Below are positions 30,909 through 37,670 of a stretch of DNA of 64,000 nucleotides, piece by piece. The position numbers and the translations under genes are program-made. The DNA comes from an uncultured delta proteobacterium (GTDB lineage Bacteria; Desulfobacterota; Binatia; UBA9968): assembly GCA_963816145.1 (NCBI GenBank), contig CAWFJP010000011.1:32001-96000 (forward strand), read 5' to 3'. The notes beneath the pieces are model-generated. The model searched no databases. It was given only the letters and a program-made list of their open reading frames with translations, and was not told the DNA's origin. How positions within the stretch are numbered: position 1 is the stretch's first letter; every line of letters begins with the position of its first letter.

Positions 30909-31391
30909 TAGAGATTTGAGATAGAGATTTGAGACCCCGCCCAATTCGCTGGACGCACAGCTAGCGTTTCATCAGACCGCTTAACATGCTCGCTATTTCA
31001 TCGCAGTGTAAATATAAGTTTTGAAAATGACCATCCTCTACATAATGTTGCTTCTTGCAAACGTGAAGCAAGCTGACGACCTCATACACCGAGCCTTTGG
31101 CGACATTATAAAAGTACCGCGATTCTTTCGGACTGTCCCGGCCAGTCCCTTCTGCGATGTTGGTAGAAATTGACAATGCTGCACGGCGAATCTGCTCGCC
31201 AAGCGAGTACTGATCCCGCTGTTGAATCGATGACGAAACAAGCGCGACCTGTTCGTAGAGAGAAATTGACTTCTGCCAGACATCAAGCCGCTCAAACTTA
31301 AACACTACTTACTCCCAACGCGCTAACGTCAACTGGCTCCTCCTCCGTTCCGACGTCTCCATCTCAATTCTCTATCACCATTCTCTATCTC
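30909..31391. mobile_element. candidate cassette: four-helix-bundle gene enclosed by imperfect inverted repeats
   Basis: Left arm TAGAGATTTGAGATAGAGATTTGAGA (30909-30934); right arm TCTCAATTCTCTATCACCATTCTCTA (31362-31387), 22/26 complementary; enclosed ORF is AT-richer; mobility is inferred. Confidence 0.45.
30961..31305 (-). CDS. four helix bundle protein (23S rRNA IVS-protein / Avd-like family)
   Basis: 'FERLDVWQKS', 'YSLGEQIRRAALSISTNIAEG', 'AKGSVYE'; GTG start with GGGAG RBS. Confidence 0.9.
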   Translation of the reverse strand: MFKFERLDVWQKSISLYEQVALVSSSIQQRDQYSLGEQIRRAALSISTNIAEGTGRDSPKESRYFYNVAKGSVYEVVSLLHVCKKQHYVEDGHFQNLYLHCDEIASMLSGLMKR

Positions 31392-32211
31392 ACTTTCCCC
31401 AATCCCGCGAGTAGCGGAAGTCGCGGTCGATGGTGCGTTGCGAGACTTTGGCGATCACCGGCAGGCGCCGTTTGAATTGGGAATTCATGATGCGCGTGGC
31501 GATGTCGTCGATGAAGCGTTCGGGGAAACCGGCGGCGGCCAACTCGGCTTTGGTGTAGCGCCGGTCGACCATCAGGTAGAGCAGCTTGTCGACTTCGCGG
31601 TAGGAAAAGCCCAACTCGCCTTCGTCGGTCTGGCCGCTCCACAAATCCGCCGACGGCTCCTTGATAACGATCACCGGAGGCACGCCGATCGCCTCGGAAA
31701 GCGCCCACACCTGGGTCTTGTAGAGATCGCCTAGCGGATTGAGCGCCGATGCCATGTCGCCATGGATGGTGCCATAGCCAAGCAAAAGCTCGGTCTTGTT
31801 GCTGGTGCCAAGGACCAGCGCATTCCAGCGCATCGATTGATCGTAAAGGATCGTCATGCGCTCGCGCGCCATCTTGTTGCCGCGCCGGCGCGCATCGGCG
31901 TCGGGAAAGCGCTCGAAGTAGCCGTCGATCTGCGGCGTGATATCGACCAGCAGCGACTCGATGTCGCTCTTTCCCGCGACCATCTCTGCATGAGCCTGAC
32001 TATCGGGATTGGAGTTCTTATAGGGCATCATCACGCCCATAACATTTTTCGGCCCCAACGCTTCAGCCGCCAACATCGCGCTCAACGCCGAATCGACACC
32101 GCCGGAAAGCCCGACCACCACGCGCACAAGCCCGGTCTTACGTACTTCATTACGAATGAATGCGACGAGTATCTGGCGCAGTAAAACGGTGTTAATCGGG
32201 ATCTGAATCAT
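31390..32211 (-). CDS. nadE: NAD+ synthetase (synthetase domain only)
   Basis: 'GLSGGVDS', 'GNKMARERM', 'GTSNKTE', 'PSADLW.GQTDE'. Confidence 0.95.
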
Positions 32212-32266: not shown

Positions 32267-33181
32267 TTATTTCTTCTTGGCGGTTCTCCGGTCTTGAACC
32301 TTTGAACCTTTGAACTTTCGAACGATCTCCGCCCCCGGCCGCTCGCGGATACGCATCAGCTCATTGATCGTCAGATCCAAATCCTCGTCGCGCAACAGCG
32401 GCGACATGGTGCGTTTGCGCCGCACCGCCTCGAAGCCGGCATCGATGGCGATGAAGTCCTCTTCGTAATAGCGCGCCTTGGCGAGCCGCTCGCCGAAGGG
32501 ATCGACGATCTCGGAGCCGCCCCAGAAGCCGACACCGTCTTCGAATCCACAGCGGTTACCGTAGACCATGAACAGACTGTAGGTTTCGGCATAAACATGA
32601 TTGAGCATCTCCCAGTAGCGCGCGTTGTCGTCCTGGCTCTGCTGATCGACGATGCCGCGCAGCGGACTGGCCGACGGACAGAGCACCGCCAGGGCGCCAT
32701 CCAAAGCGGCCAAATATATCGTCGATGGGTGCCAGAGATCTTCACAGATCAACAGCGCCATGCGACCGAACTTGGAGTCGAACGCGCGCACCCGGTCGCC
32801 GCGGGCGAAATAGCGCTGTTCGTCGAACATGCCGTAGGTCGGTAGATAGACTTTGCGGTGCACATGCCGCACTGCGCCATCCTCGAAATAGACCGCCGAG
32901 TTGAAGAACCTATGGTCGGGGCTCTCTTCGACAAGCCCCGCGACGAAGGCGAGCTTGCGGCTGAGCGCCGTGAGCTGCTTGATCTCTGGCGAATCCAGTT
33001 TCAACGCTACCGCCGGCACGGTGTCGCGCAGCATGTAGCCGGTGAGACTCAATTCAGGGAATAATAACAGTTGGGCTTTGTCATCGGCGGCGTGACCGAT
33101 GCGCTCTTTATACAACGCCAGGTTAGCCTGGAGGTCGCCAAGTCTTGGGTTGACCTGGCCGATAGCGATGCGGATGGACAC
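32267..33181 (-). CDS. carbon-nitrogen hydrolase (nitrilase fold), probable stand-alone glutaminase subunit for NadE
   Basis: E-K-C triad 'FPELSLTGY', '[18 protein letters not shown]', 'ICEDLW'; adjacent and co-oriented with nadE. Confidence 0.85.
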
Positions 33182-33249
33182 GAGAAGTTCTCCGTCTGCG
33201 AGCAAGCTAGAAATAAATTCTCACGAAACTAACATAGGCCTCACCATAC

Positions 33250-33278
33250 TTGCAATTTGCACCAGCCGCGCTTAACTT
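33250..33278 (+). promoter_or_regulatory. possible sigma70-type promoter for the glutaredoxin-like ORF
   Basis: TTGCAA-17 nt-TAACTT in the divergent intergenic region. Confidence 0.3.
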
Positions 33279-33327
33279 GATGAAGGCGACCGAGCGAAGC
33301 GTTTCCCGGCGTTCTGAGCGCAAACCC

Positions 33328-33552
33328 ATGGCAGAAAAGGTCACGATATACGGTCAAGACCTATGAGCTTTTACTTCGGGAGCCCGTGCGGACTTCTCCC
33401 GGCGTAAAGTGCCCTTCGACTACGTCAACGTCTTGGAAGACGACGCCGGACTCCAGCGGATGATGCAATTGACCAACGGCAGGCGGAAGATTCCCGTGAT
33501 CGTCCAAGACGGTAAGGTTACCGTCGGCTTCGGCGGCACCTGAGAGGTCTGA
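33328..33552 (+). CDS. glutaredoxin-like small selenoprotein with two probable Sec (UGA) residues, ending U-x-x-stop
   Basis: Manual translation MAEKVTIYGQDL*AFTSGARADFSRRKVPFDYVNVLEDDAGLQRMMQLTNGRRKIPVIVQDGKVTVGFGGT*EV-stop; TGA at 33364 sits at the Grx redox position, TGA at 33541 is near the C-terminus; cis-Pro 'IPVI' and 'GF' motifs. Confidence 0.82.
33378..33400 (+). promoter_or_regulatory. candidate bacterial SECIS hairpin after first UGA
   Basis: GGGAG-CCCGTGCGGACTT-CTCCC starting 11 nt after the TGA at 33364-33366. Confidence 0.45.
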
Positions 33553-34704
33553 ATGACCGACGGCGTCGGCCACCCATGCAAGATCACCGGCTCAGAAGTA
33601 ACCGTTAGCGAAACTCTAAATTCACCCTTGGCTGAAACCATCGCTCAACTGATTGCCGAGAAAGTCGTCGTGCTTTTCGGCCCCAACGCCGCAATCACCG
33701 GTATCACCGCCTTGCCCGGCGACGCTTCGACTCGGCGCTACTACCGCGTGCACCTAGCCAACGCCGGCGCACCGGCATCGCTGATGGCGATGCAACTGCC
33801 CGCCGGCAGCGGCCTGCCGATCTCCAGCGAGGAGTTGGCAGTTTTCAAGGACGATCTCAAGGAATTGCCGTTCTTAAACGTGCACCGGTTTCTCGATGGC
33901 GTCGGCGTCAGAGTGCCTAAGATCTACGGACAATGGGAAGCCGACGGCATTCTGCTCCTCGAAGACTTGGGCGATACTACGCTATGGGATCAGGTGCGGG
34001 GATTGCCCGAAAGCGAAGTGATCGGCTGGTACAAAAAAGCCATCGACGAACTTTTGCGCATACAAATCGCCGGGACCGAAAACCGTGACGACTCCTGCCG
34101 CGCTTTTCAGCAACGCTTCGACGAAAAACTTTACCTGTGGGAATTCGAGCACTTTATCGAATGGGGTCTGGAAAAGCGGCCTGGCGCCAAGGTCACCACG
34201 AAGGCCGTTGCGACCCTGCGCGAAACTTTCGCCGCCATCGCCCAAACCCTCGACCGCGAACCACCCTGCCTCAACCACCGCGATTACCATAGCTGGAATC
34301 TGATGATCCATGACGGGGCGGTATGCGTCATCGATTTTCAAGACGCCTTGCTCGCGCCGGCGCAATACGATCTCGCCTCGCTGTTGAACGATCGCATCAC
34401 CGACGCCGTCGTCCGGCCGCACATCGAACCGCAACTGGTCGATTACTATCTCGAAAAATCTATTGATTTATCGGGCCGCGGCCGGTCGCGCCAGGAGTTC
34501 TTCGAAATTTATCGCCTGTCGGCGATCCAACGCGATTTGAAAGTGGTCGGCCGCTTCTATTTTCTCGATCTGGTCAAGGGCAAACCAGGCTACATGAAAT
34601 TTGTCCCGCCCACTGTGCGCCGGCTTCAGCGTAATCTGGCGCAAGTGGCGCAGACTCAACCGATCCTGGCGCTCTTGAGCGAACATTTTGAGGCGATGCT
34701 TTGA
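33553..34704 (+). CDS. amgK: APH-family phosphotransferase, AmgK-like MurNAc/GlcNAc kinase
   Basis: 'GDASTRRYYR', 'LEDLGD', 'HRDYHSWNLM', 'IDFQDA', 'QRDLKVVGRF'; next to a MurU-like gene; true start may be TTG 33628. Confidence 0.8.
   Translation: MTDGVGHPCKITGSEVTVSETLNSPLAETIAQLIAEKVVVLFGPNAAITGITALPGDASTRRYYRVHLANAGAPASLMAMQLPAGSGLPISSEELAVFKDDLKELPFLNVHRFLDGVGVRVPKIYGQWEADGILLLEDLGDTTLWDQVRGLPESEVIGWYKKAIDELLRIQIAGTENRDDSCRAFQQRFDEKLYLWEFEHFIEWGLEKRPGAKVTTKAVATLRETFAAIAQTLDREPPCLNHRDYHSWNLMIHDGAVCVIDFQDALLAPAQYDLASLLNDRITDAVVRPHIEPQLVDYYLEKSIDLSGRGRSRQEFFEIYRLSAIQRDLKVVGRFYFLDLVKGKPGYMKFVPPTVRRLQRNLAQVAQTQPILALLSEHFEAML
33557..33569 (+). promoter_or_regulatory. candidate SECIS hairpin after second UGA
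   Basis: CCGAC-GGC-GTCGG starting 13 nt after the TGA at 33541-33543. Confidence 0.4.
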
Positions 34705-34725: not shown

Positions 34726-34804
34726 AATGCAGAGAGCAAATTGCAAAAGGCAAAAGTAGAAATCACGATCGGAATTTTGCACTTTGCAGTCTCCATTCTG
34801 CATT
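34726..34804. repeat. imperfect inverted repeat of TGCAAAA-like 7-nt units
   Basis: AATGCAGAGAGCAAATTGCAAAAGGCAAAA vs TTTTGCACTTTGCAGTCTCCATTCTGCATT, about 23/30 complementary. Confidence 0.65.
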
Positions 34805-34831
34805 TTGCTTTTCCCAAGACCGAGGCCTGTC

Positions 34832-35575
34832 ATGAAAGCGATGGTGTTGGCCGCCGGCCAAGGGACGCGCCTGCGGCCGATCACCGATCGCATGCCCAAA
34901 GCGCTGGTGCCGGTGGCCGGCCGGCCGATGATCGAGTTTGCCTTGCTGCTGCTGCGCCGTTACGGCGTTCGCGATATCGTCATCAACTTGCATCATTTCG
35001 GCACCCAGATCGAAGATCATCTGGGCGATGGCCAACGTTTCAATGTCAACATCAGCTATTCCCGTGAGACCGAGCTGCTGGAAACCGGCGGCGGGCTGCT
35101 CAAAGCCAAAGCCTTTTTGCAACACGGCACGTTCATAGTCATCAACACCGACGCCTTGATCGACGTCGACCTGGCGGCGGTGCTAAACGACCATCGGCGG
35201 AACAATGCGGCGGCAACACTGGTGCTCCGCCCTGATGCCGAAGCCGACCGTTACGGCTCCATCGATATCGACGCCGACGGCCGTATCTGTCGTTTTCTCG
35301 AACACCGCTTCCCAGGCCAGCCGGTTGGCGCCATCAAAAAACTAATGTTCACCGGTGTGCAGGTTCTCGAGCCGCGGGTGTTCGATTACATGGACGGCGG
35401 CAGCCTGAAAAAATTCAGCACCACCAGAGAAACCTATCCGCGCATGTTACGCGCCGGCGAGCGGCTTTACGGCTATTGTTTCAAAGGCTTCTGGCAGGAT
35501 CTTGGCACCAGGGAACGAATCAACGAGGTGGAACAAAAGCTCAGCAATGGCCAGGCAAAATTGGATTTTTTATGA
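34832..35575 (+). CDS. murU: nucleotidyltransferase, MurU-like
   Basis: 'MKAMVLAAGQGTRLRPIT..PKALVPV', 'LETGGG', 'WQDLGT'. Confidence 0.8.
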   Translation: MKAMVLAAGQGTRLRPITDRMPKALVPVAGRPMIEFALLLLRRYGVRDIVINLHHFGTQIEDHLGDGQRFNVNISYSRETELLETGGGLLKAKAFLQHGTFIVINTDALIDVDLAAVLNDHRRNNAAATLVLRPDAEADRYGSIDIDADGRICRFLEHRFPGQPVGAIKKLMFTGVQVLEPRVFDYMDGGSLKKFSTTRETYPRMLRAGERLYGYCFKGFWQDLGTRERINEVEQKLSNGQAKLDFL

Positions 35576-35757: not shown

Positions 35758-36660
35758 ATGCTCGACCGAATCATCACTGATCTGCAGCAAAACCAAAACC
35801 CGGATGGCGGCTGGGGCTCCCTGCGCGATAAGCGCAGTAATACCGAGTCAACTGCATTAGCCGTCATGGCGCTGAAAGCGCTAGCCGAAACCACCGCAGC
35901 GGATAACCGCAAACGCGGCATCGATTGGTTGGTCCGCCATCAAAACCAAGATCATAGCTGGCCGCTCAACGAAGCCGCAAAAGAAGGCTCATGGACAACG
36001 GCATTGGCAATCACCGCTCTCGCCGATAATGCGGAGAACAGCGAACGCGTACTCGCCGCTGCCCGTTGGCTGCTCGAGCAAGAGGGCAGCAAGCCCGGCA
36101 TTCTCGCCGAGATCATTTTATGGGCTACCGGCAAGTCGAAGGTCAACAAAGTCAACAACGATCTCATTGGCTGGTCTTGGGTGCCGAATTCATTTAGCTG
36201 GGTGGAACCGACCAGCTATGCGATGATCGCCGTCAAGAAATTGCGCGCTCGCCTCGCCGGTACCCATGTCGACGAGCGCATCCGCCAAGCTAGTGCCATG
36301 ATCTACGATCGCATGTGCAACGGCGGCGGCTGGAACTACGGCAACTCGAAAGTCTTGGATTACGCGCTCTGGCCTTATCCGGACATTACCGCAATAGCCT
36401 TGATCGCCCTGCAAGATCATGCGCGCGAGAAAGCCAATCAGGAAAGTTTGCCAGTCTTAATCAAACTTGCCCGCGAAACCGATTCCGGTTTGGCGCTCTG
36501 TTGGGCAGCCATTTGTCTCAATCTTTACGGGCAGGATAATTCCGACTTTCAGAGACAGATCGAGAAGCGCTTCGCGTCCAGTGCTTTTCTCGGCGAAACC
36601 AAGAGCCTGGCACTGGCGATAATCGCGTTGAGCAGCAAAGCCAATCCATTTCGCATTTAG
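35758..36660 (+). CDS. prenyltransferase/squalene-oxidase repeat (alpha/alpha-barrel) protein
   Basis: QW-like repeats 'QNPDGGW', 'QNQDHSW', 'GGGWNYGN'. Confidence 0.75.
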   Translation: MLDRIITDLQQNQNPDGGWGSLRDKRSNTESTALAVMALKALAETTAADNRKRGIDWLVRHQNQDHSWPLNEAAKEGSWTTALAITALADNAENSERVLAAARWLLEQEGSKPGILAEIILWATGKSKVNKVNNDLIGWSWVPNSFSWVEPTSYAMIAVKKLRARLAGTHVDERIRQASAMIYDRMCNGGGWNYGNSKVLDYALWPYPDITAIALIALQDHAREKANQESLPVLIKLARETDSGLALCWAAICLNLYGQDNSDFQRQIEKRFASSAFLGETKSLALAIIALSSKANPFRI

Positions 36661-36674
36661 GATCCCAGGATATT

Positions 36675-37670
36675 ATGATGCGCCGTAGAGCTTTTCTTAA
36701 ATATACCGCCTTGGGTTCGCTCGGCACGACGCTTGCCGGCTGCCAATCGTCGGGGCACTGGCAGCGCGAAGCATTTCGCAAGAAAGCCATCTCGCGGGTC
36801 GCCGTCTTGGGGGCCAAGACTTACGACCAGCCGCTCAAGGACGTGATACTGCGAGGCATCAAGCTTTGCGGATTGCAGGTCGCAGGAAAACGAATCGTCT
36901 TGAAGCCGAATTTGGTCGAATTCGATCCCAAAGGCGTGATCAATACCAACCCGGCAGTCATCGAGGCAGCCATCGACGCCTTCCAAACGCTCGGAGCTGC
37001 CACAGTGAGCGTCGCCGAAGGACCGGGCCACCGGCGCGACAACGAGTATCTACTGTCAGCGTCGGGACTCTATGATGTCATACGCGATCACCAAGTCCGC
37101 TACCTCGATCTTAATACCGACGACGTTCGAGCTACCCCGGTGCGTAGCGACTATACCCGCTTCAAGCAACTGTACCTGCCGGAGACATTATTCAACAGCG
37201 ACCTGCTGGTTTCGATGCCGAAACTGAAAACCCATCATTGGGCCGGGGTGACGTTATCGATGAAAAACATGTTCGGCATCGTTCCCGGGGCGGTCTACGG
37301 TTGGCCGAAGAATATTCTTCACTGGCAAGGCATCGACAACAGCATATTGGATATCAACAGCTCCCTGCCGCTGCCGCAGTTCGCCATCGTCGACGGCATC
37401 GTCGGCATGCAGGGCAACGGCCCGCTACAAGGCCAGGCCAAAGCCAGCGGCGTGCTAGTCTTCGGCGATGATTTTGTGTCGGTGGACGCCAGCGCGGCAA
37501 GGCTTATGAAACTCGAACCGCGCAAGATCAATTATTTGGCCAAGGCCGATGAGTTCCTCGGCAACCTGGCCTACGAAAGAATCGAACAGATCGGCGAGAA
37601 ACTTGAAAAATTCGAGCAAGACTTCGACGTAATCGAAAGCCTGGAATATTTGAAAAAAATCACCGGCTGA
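36675..37670 (+). CDS. DUF362 family protein, predicted Tat lipoprotein
   Basis: 'RRRAFLK' Tat motif + 'LAGC'; 'LKPNLV', 'PKLKTH', 'TLSMKNMFG', 'DGIVGMQGNGP'. Confidence 0.85.
   Translation: MMRRRAFLKYTALGSLGTTLAGCQSSGHWQREAFRKKAISRVAVLGAKTYDQPLKDVILRGIKLCGLQVAGKRIVLKPNLVEFDPKGVINTNPAVIEAAIDAFQTLGAATVSVAEGPGHRRDNEYLLSASGLYDVIRDHQVRYLDLNTDDVRATPVRSDYTRFKQLYLPETLFNSDLLVSMPKLKTHHWAGVTLSMKNMFGIVPGAVYGWPKNILHWQGIDNSILDINSSLPLPQFAIVDGIVGMQGNGPLQGQAKASGVLVFGDDFVSVDASAARLMKLEPRKINYLAKADEFLGNLAYERIEQIGEKLEKFEQDFDVIESLEYLKKITG

Follow-up and report, generated by a model that had tools for sequence, protein, structure and literature searches.

A candidate two-selenocysteine gene of UXX-star selenoprotein family 1 in an uncultured delta proteobacterium

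The window analyzed here is a stretch of 64,000 nucleotides (nt) from an uncultured delta proteobacterium (GTDB lineage Bacteria; Desulfobacterota; Binatia; UBA9968), namely positions 32,001 to 96,000 of contig CAWFJP010000011.1 in assembly GCA_963816145.1. Near its middle lies a short glutaredoxin-like reading frame that is interrupted twice by TGA, and the question raised by this locus is whether the two codons specify selenocysteine (Sec, U) in a functional protein and, if so, what such a pair of residues might do. We assign a probability of about 0.92 to the interpretation that positions 33328-33552 are a real gene with two Sec residues and a member of the UXX-star selenoprotein family 1. 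The gene is a further member of a catalogued family, whose existence, name and two Sec residues were already known. Two modest additions are made here, the first being an asymmetry between the two Sec positions, 13 and 72, and the second being covariation support for a bacterial selenocysteine insertion sequence (SECIS) located entirely 3' of the stop codon in the gene that it would serve.

The hidden reading frame and its family

A preliminary description of the window had proposed a hidden frame of 74 codons with TGA at codons 13 and 72, followed by a TGA stop, and the sequence agrees with this exactly (coordinates are collected in Table 1). Translation with read-through of the first 74 codons gives MAEKVTIYGQDL-U-AFTSGARADFSRRKVPFDYVNVLEDDAGLQRMMQLTNGRRKIPVIVQDGKVTVGFGGT-U-EV, a product that contains no cysteine (Cys), as had been stated, and the C-terminal layout of the gene is TGA-GAG-GTC-TGA at 33541-33552. 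In the open reading frame (ORF) listing made under translation table 11, this frame is represented only by a 44-residue fragment with a GTG start (33409-33543). The 74-codon gene is missing from the six-frame track because the standard table leaves nothing but this fragment. The locus is thus an example of a real gene missed by ordinary gene callers, in a genome where several other genes use selenocysteine as well.

For profile searches, TGA was read as Sec and given to HMMER as Cys. The product matched the NCBIfam model NF041114, 'UXX-star selenoprotein family 1', with 103.7 bits (cut-off 72, E = 4.4e-30), and all 70 profile positions (1-70) aligned to residues 5-74, including the tail; by this match, the family name given in the preliminary description was the correct one. 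The protein also passed the parent model NF041212 (86 bits, cut-off 66) and the Pfam Glutaredoxin family PF00462 (38.4 bits, cut-off 22.9). It resembles family 1 in its full-length match over the cut-off, the UxxT motif, the two Sec residues and the C-terminal U-x-x-stop, and nothing essential sets it apart; the copy in the window and those of its seven nearest relatives have UGA as the stop codon, and in the window the second of the hairpins described below overlaps the start of the next ORF. A small glutaredoxin-like domain ending in U-x-x-stop is likewise found in UXX-star families 2 and 3 (NF041211 and NF047338) and in the HUGP/GUXX-star fusion (NF045501), but the window protein scored 52.7, 49.4 and 57.0 bits with these models, far under their cut-offs of 100, 97 and 325.

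Judged by sequence, the protein belongs to the fold family of glutaredoxins and NrdH/YruB-type redoxins (PF00462), with which it shares an active-site residue where helix 1 begins, a cis-Pro loop and a G-F/G-G region. The first TGA had been placed at the glutaredoxin active-site position, where it reads U-A-F-T, and this placement was borne out, with cis-Pro56 and the G-F-G-G region retained in relatives. The window protein differs from these redoxins in its U/CxxT motif, as opposed to CxxC or CxxS, and in its C-terminal Sec. The CxxC/CxxS active site of dithiol and monothiol glutaredoxins was not found in it, the motif being UxxT, and the glutaredoxin, NrdH and mycoredoxin equivalog models in NCBIfam all scored far under cut-off (TIGR02181, TIGR02196, TIGR02194 and related models, 13-37 bits vs. 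cut-offs of 85-131). A search of the family profile against solved structures in PDB gave weak matches to glutaredoxins (E values from 7e-6 to 4.5e-4), the best being 5w1j, the glutaredoxin domain of a thioredoxin glutathione reductase (E = 7e-6), and the 84-residue glutaredoxin 7c12_A (E = 6e-5), where profile positions 1-69 aligned to chain residues 1-67. Because the alignment with 7c12 stops there, the UXX-star protein would end where normal glutaredoxins go on into their last helix; the window protein ends 5 residues past the last strand, whereas 7c12 continues. These alignments predict that the protein is a truncated glutaredoxin fold without the usual C-terminal helix.

A full-text literature search for 'UXX-star' returned PMC13188914, a review from 2026, as the sole match. 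Its Table 1 lists the family as 'Distant Grx-like protein 1' with the motif UxxT and 2 Sec, and gives one Sec and the motif GxGU for UXX-star family 2. In the sections of the review that were available, Zhang & Gladyshev 2008 is cited, and Haft & Tolstoy 2025 (mSystems) is credited for UXX-star family 2 and the HUGP/GUXX-star fusion. Another paper, PMC2398784, lists a 'Grx-like' UxxC family, and 'Distant Grx-like protein 1' is not named in the portion of its text that was available. The search terms for the family did not occur in PMC13326102 (BSepDB).

We assessed the conservation of the two UGA codons by scanning 101 related genomes with NF041114. The scan found 78 genomes over the cut-off, a tally that includes three unpublished genomes; when the count was restricted to genomes with a completeness of 90% or more and a contamination of 5% or less, 48 of 57 matched at E <= 1e-8, again with unpublished genomes counted. 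Outside the genome of the window, 75 of the 77 matches were read, two loci from unpublished genomes being left out, and one further locus from an unpublished genome was dropped, which gave a comparison set of 75 sequences (the window and 74 relatives). All relatives aligned to the window protein without gaps. Codon 72 was TGA in every sequence (75/75), and codon 13 was TGA in 56 and a Cys codon in 19 (TGC in 14, TGT in 5), with a threonine three residues further on, Thr16, in 75/75. Codon 75 was a stop in all 75 (TAG 46, TGA 15, TAA 14), always after exactly two sense codons. The third positions of codons 73 and 74 vary, the GT of the valine codon and T10 of the stop codon are fixed, and Val74 is present in at least 90% of the sequences.

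A separate scan of species-representative genomes yielded 79 loci, of which 56 duplicated earlier ones. Among the new loci, 22 fitted the pattern with U or C allowed at both positions; the C-terminal codon was TGA in 22/22, and position 13 was U in 15 and C in 7. One locus broke the pattern, having one extra residue and reading U13 ... U-R-V-TGA. Taken with the first set, none of the 98 sequences (75 plus 23 further distinct loci) has Cys at codon 72. Since codon 72 has no Cys homolog, the assignment of Sec72 rests on the conservation of TGA, the two-codon tail and the hairpin that follows. The invariant residues are G9, C/U13, T16, A19, R20, R26, Y32, V35, M45, P56, G67, G70 and C/U72. The two comparisons proposed in the preliminary description thus came out in its favor: homologs have either TGA or Cys at codon 13 and invariably TGA at codon 72, and conservation does not stop at the first TGA but extends over the whole length to the last codon. 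Both UGA codons are almost certainly read through as Sec.

The genome of the window (7.8 Mb in 31 contigs, 99.5% complete) encodes the machinery for such decoding. The search for selA, selB, selC and selD, also proposed earlier, found selA (616.5 bits), selB (417.4 bits), selD (380.1 bits) and a tRNA-Sec (74.2 bits; anticodon tca according to ARAGORN), all four over their cut-offs and clustered on contig C30. We propose that SelB and tRNA-Sec would decode both in-frame UGA codons as Sec, each codon being directed by its own E. coli-type hairpin approximately 10-13 nt downstream, and that the third UGA would act as a true stop, probably being too near the second hairpin for recoding. The selD gene carries one in-frame TGA (…AAG-U-AAK…) and is therefore also a selenoprotein gene.

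Three further thioredoxin-fold frames with TGA at the redox position were seen in the same genome, namely a small glutaredoxin-like frame (L023:1453-1719; PG-U-GPC), a longer one whose N-terminus is glutaredoxin-like (L024:1411-2451; PG-U-SSC) and a GST-like protein (L025:1471-2055; YT-U-PYA). A hairpin follows shortly past the UGA in selD and in these three candidates, as seen in a descriptive check made without controls. The genome appears to be rich in selenoproteins.

Positions 13 and 72 and their predicted chemistry

The histories of the two positions were compared on a maximum-likelihood tree of the 75 genes, built from 207 nucleotide columns with codon 13 excluded; with so short an alignment, the exact number of changes is soft. 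Position 13 requires 14 changes between Sec and Cys on this tree, at least 9 of which are forced by well-supported branches, and position 72 requires none. When the labels were shuffled, the mean was 17.1 changes, and 21-26 of 500 shuffles were as low as 14. Seven relatives group with the window (L047, L085, L095, L096, L098, L101 and L104), and one of them, L047, has Cys13 even though it is nested within the Sec13 clade of the window and its protein is 92% identical to that of the window. The contrast between switching of Sec and Cys at position 13 and fixed Sec at position 72 is clear. It points to the C-terminal selenium as indispensable, and could guide biochemical work on the family. Judged from the aligned codons, the family is predicted to function whether the 13/72 pair is Se-Se or S-Se, the C-terminal selenium being constant.

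A possible mechanism can be outlined on this basis. Residue 13 at the U/CxxT position, which is Sec here and Cys in a quarter of the relatives, would be one bonding partner. The other would be the obligatory Sec72, a built-in resolving residue on the flexible tail G-G-(S/T)-U-x-V. In glutaredoxin structures, the G-G loop lines the active-site groove; the tail follows the last strand, and Sec72 could reach residue 13. We consider the chances about even that the two residues bond reversibly within the molecule, as Se-Se or, in the Cys13 forms, as Se-S, and that the protein may act as a self-resolving thiol/selenol oxidoreductase. A more specific proposal, which we hold only tentatively and at less than even odds, is that the window protein may cycle through a true Sec13-Sec72 diselenide, in which selenium at position 72 is indispensable and position 13 is a swappable partner. 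The diselenide as such is not essential to the family, because 19 of the 75 members have Cys13. If the proposal is true, then the protein would be among very few natural diselenide redox proteins, and the family would offer natural Se-Se and Se-S series of one protein for comparison. The SelL family, with its UxxU motif, provides a precedent for a diselenide.

The animal thioredoxin reductases and thioredoxin glutathione reductases, which end in a Gly-Cys-Sec-Gly tail, resemble the window protein in having a Sec in the penultimate region on a flexible, Gly-rich C-terminus, and possibly in their way of working. In thioredoxin reductase, the tail Sec shuttles electrons to and from a buried redox centre. 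However, that enzyme is a flavoenzyme, as opposed to a redoxin of 74 residues, the partner of its Sec is adjacent rather than 59 residues away, and its Sec is decoded by the eukaryotic route. We do not claim membership in this group for the window protein.

An alternative explanation accepts the same gene with the same two Sec residues, and takes the pair as a ligand for a soft metal or metalloid (e.g., Hg, As or Cu) without a redox couple. The authors of PMC13188914, in the part of the review available, suggest that Sec in UXX-star proteins may bind metals, which speaks against a redox role for the pair, and the absence of Cys at position 72 from all 98 sequences fits a need for the soft-metal affinity of selenium. 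On the other hand, the genes adjacent to the window copy are not those of metal resistance or transport; in this clade, the neighbors comprise a split NAD synthase and a pair made up of an AmgK-like sugar kinase and a MurU-like nucleotidyltransferase, with a Dabb-isochorismatase gene in another clade. In addition, the hallmarks of glutaredoxins (the active-site position, cis-Pro56 and the G-F-G-G region) are retained. We regard metal binding as rather unlikely.

Candidate SECIS elements and the end of the frame

A hairpin had been described past the second TGA at 33557-33569, and it is present at these positions. This hairpin (hairpin 2) lies wholly 3' of the stop codon, within the first codons of the next ORF. 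We aligned the 50 nt from codon 72 onwards for 74 sequences, one locus being cut by a contig end, and found a stem of 6-7 bp directly past the stop codon. In the specified structure, 91.1% of cells were paired, compared to 73.1% in column shuffles, and the covariation score was 0.466 compared to 0.196, with none of 500 shuffles reaching 0.466. Compensatory changes were present in 6 of 7 pairs (e.g., one pair alternates between G-C, A-U and G-U, and two others between C-G and G-C), and the covariation score was at most 0.087 in controls with a slid register. RNAalifold independently predicted the inner five pairs, with compensatory changes in all of them. The stem starts 13-18 nt, and the loop 19-24 nt, from the U of UGA, and the loops are GGUC in 36 of the 74 sequences, GGC in 18 (including the window), GGU in 13 and other in 7.

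The E. coli fdhF-type SECIS, as described in the available part of PMC8659212, has an upper stem-loop 11 nt from the UGA and a loop with G23 and U24. The elements described here resemble it in the presence of a hairpin near the UGA and in the apical-loop G and U at positions 23 and 24; the loop of hairpin 2 is GGU(C) or GGU in 49/74 sequences, and hairpin 1, which follows the first UGA, has the same loop G23 and U24. No equivalent of the bulged U17 of the E. coli element was identified. Neither hairpin matched any Rfam family, the lone hit (toga_FSE, 17.1 bits vs. a gathering threshold of 40, E = 1.4) being on the opposite strand and due to chance. A scan of 33100-33750 found no terminator-like site, hairpin 2 being without a T-run, and no sigma-70 promoter. 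The covariation data support hairpin 2 as a putative SECIS-like element for UGA-72.

These results also bear on the possibility that only codon 13 is Sec, with the TGA at codon 72 a real stop and the hairpin serving mRNA stability or regulation of the next gene. TGA is a normal stop codon in this genome, and the last three residues are known from DNA alone. Against this, two sense codons and a stop follow in 75/75 sequences, with codon-like variation and Val74 kept; the codon is TGA in 98/98 sequences, whereas the stops at codon 75 are a mixture of TAG, TGA and TAA; the hairpin stands at SECIS spacing with a GGU loop and has no T-run; and the NF041114 model spans the tail. Termination at codon 72 is therefore very improbable.

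Hairpin 1 lies inside the coding sequence. The preliminary description was right that a hairpin exists past the first TGA, although the upper stem spans 33376-33402 rather than the 33378-33400 that it gave. On the 56 Sec13 genes, RNAalifold retained only the apical pairs C21-G28 and C22-G27, both of which are invariant. The outer stem shifts its register between clades. Both apical pairs are intact in 56/56 Sec13 genes and in only 12/19 Cys13 genes, the changes being made through synonymous third positions, and when folding was forced to keep these pairs, energies averaged -9.4 kcal/mol for Sec13 and -6.4 kcal/mol for Cys13 genes. At loop position 24, every Sec13 gene has U or G, whereas 4 Cys13 genes have C, and the Cys13 relative L047 has a substitution that creates a C-C mismatch in the upper stem. 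Hairpin 1 is thus conserved, and its apical pairs are, from these comparisons, probably specific to Sec13 genes.

Several observations count against the reading of both UGA codons as Sec with a SECIS of their own. The minimum free energy of hairpin 1 is -18.1 kcal/mol (z = -0.79), and 47 of 200 shuffled sequences folded equally well or better. RNAalifold found no covariation in hairpin 1 among the 56 Sec13 genes, and the outer-stem register of the window was fully paired (6/6) in only 16 of these 56. Unconstrained folding energies were alike for Sec13 and Cys13 genes (-11.31 vs. -11.09 kcal/mol), and the Fisher test on the apical pairs (p = 2.5e-5) ignores relatedness. In hairpin 2 of the window itself, loop position 24 is C instead of U. 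Finally, PMC13188914, in its available part, places the family among 'predicted' rather than 'experimentally verified' selenoproteins. The evidence for hairpin 1 is accordingly weaker than that for hairpin 2.

Table 1. Features of the UXX-star locus and of the Sec machinery. Positions are those of the window unless preceded by a contig name; residues and functions at the UGA codons and hairpins are predicted.
Feature	Position	Strand	Remarks
UXX-star family 1 glutaredoxin-like selenoprotein, coding sequence (74 residues)	33328..33552	+	ATG start; TGA stop at 33550-33552; from sequence and translation
UGA codon 13, read as Sec	33364..33366	+	U-A-F-T, the U/CxxT redox motif; TGA or Cys in relatives
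UGA codon 72, read as Sec	33541..33543	+	G-G-T-U-E-V-stop; TGA in all relatives
UGA stop, codon 75	33550..33552	+	9 nt past the Sec72 UGA, 4 nt ahead of hairpin 2
SECIS-like hairpin 1	33367..33412	+	Lower stem 33367-33374 with 33404-33412; upper stem 33376-33382 with 33396-33402
Hairpin 1 apex	C33384-G33391, C33385-G33390	+	Loop begins G33386, U33387 (positions 23 and 24 from the U of UGA)
SECIS-like hairpin 2	33557..33569	+	Stem 33557-33561 with 33565-33569; loop GGC 33562-33564
APH-family kinase (383 residues)	33553-34704	+	Best matches are AmgK models, 104.5 bits, far under cut-off
Nucleotidyltransferase	34784-35575	+	Closest to MurU, 187.8 bits vs. cut-off 250
Split NAD+ synthase: CN-hydrolase (glutaminase-type) gene and NadE gene	31390-32211, 32267-33205	-	Upstream, divergent
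selA, selB, selD	C30:562492-566803		Head to tail; tRNA-Sec approximately 10 kb further at C30:576761-576851

The third UGA and the genomic surroundings

In the window, the ATG of the AmgK-like kinase abuts the third UGA in the same frame, and the seven relatives that group with the window on the tree also have TGA as the stop here. This layout admits the possibility that the third UGA (33550) is partly recoded, which would fuse the redoxin to the in-frame 383-residue kinase from 33553. Among relatives, however, the kinase is in frame 0, 1 or 2 with respect to the UXX-star gene (frame 2 in L095, L096 and L104), and the distance to the homologous kinase gene ranges from 0 to about 1500 nt. In the close relatives L047, L085 and L101, in-frame TAA or TAG stops intervene. 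The stop at codon 75 is TAG or TAA in 60/75 sequences, and only 4 nt separate the third UGA from the stem of the hairpin, compared to approximately 11 nt needed by the E. coli element in the available part of PMC8659212. Because frame and spacing vary among relatives, the third UGA is a stop, and the kinase shares its frame in the window by coincidence; the read-through fusion, which we find scarcely credible, was rejected on the varying frame. The start of the kinase at 33553 is putative, because the homologs of most relatives align only from about residue 16-30.

That the locus is a decayed glutaredoxin pseudogene or a chance frame with plain nonsense TGAs, as might be supposed from the lack of any gene here in standard gene calling, is a negligible prospect given the same two TGAs in relatives from several families of the order, the ungapped alignments, the many invariant residues flanking each TGA and the E value of the NF041114 match.

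We compared the gene order around the UXX-star gene among the relatives. In the clade of the window, the order of a divergent CN-hydrolase gene, the UXX-star gene, the AmgK-like kinase gene and the MurU-like transferase gene is kept. A different family of the order has a Dabb-isochorismatase fusion gene after the UXX-star gene (L061:2315-3277, L092:2311-3279), and no kinase is found within 2 kb. Gene neighborhood was rejected as a guide to function, since the layout is not kept in that other family. Isochorismatase-family enzymes include nicotinamidases, and a link to NAD metabolism is conceivable, which may be a coincidence.

Contigs from metatranscriptome libraries also match the locus. An X17 contig covers 33452-33602 with 1 difference, and an X15 contig covers 33526-33847 with 3 differences; both run from the 3' end of the UXX-star gene across hairpin 2 into the start of the kinase gene, and no contig of these libraries covers 33328-33451. 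Such libraries may contain DNA, and a contig over two genes is no proof of one transcript; expression is not concluded from these matches. In addition, X15 and X20 contigs match only 33520-33559 (40 nt, 4 differences), with flanks that are unlike the window on both sides, and the unlike sequence ahead of the match reads …VPVIVEDGRV in the frame of the gene. The apparent source of these contigs is a related UXX-star gene that belongs to a different organism in those samples.

Further downstream, the plus strand of the window encodes a 300-residue protein with repeats of the squalene-hopene-cyclase/prenyltransferase type (35758-36660), followed by a DUF362 protein (36675-37670).

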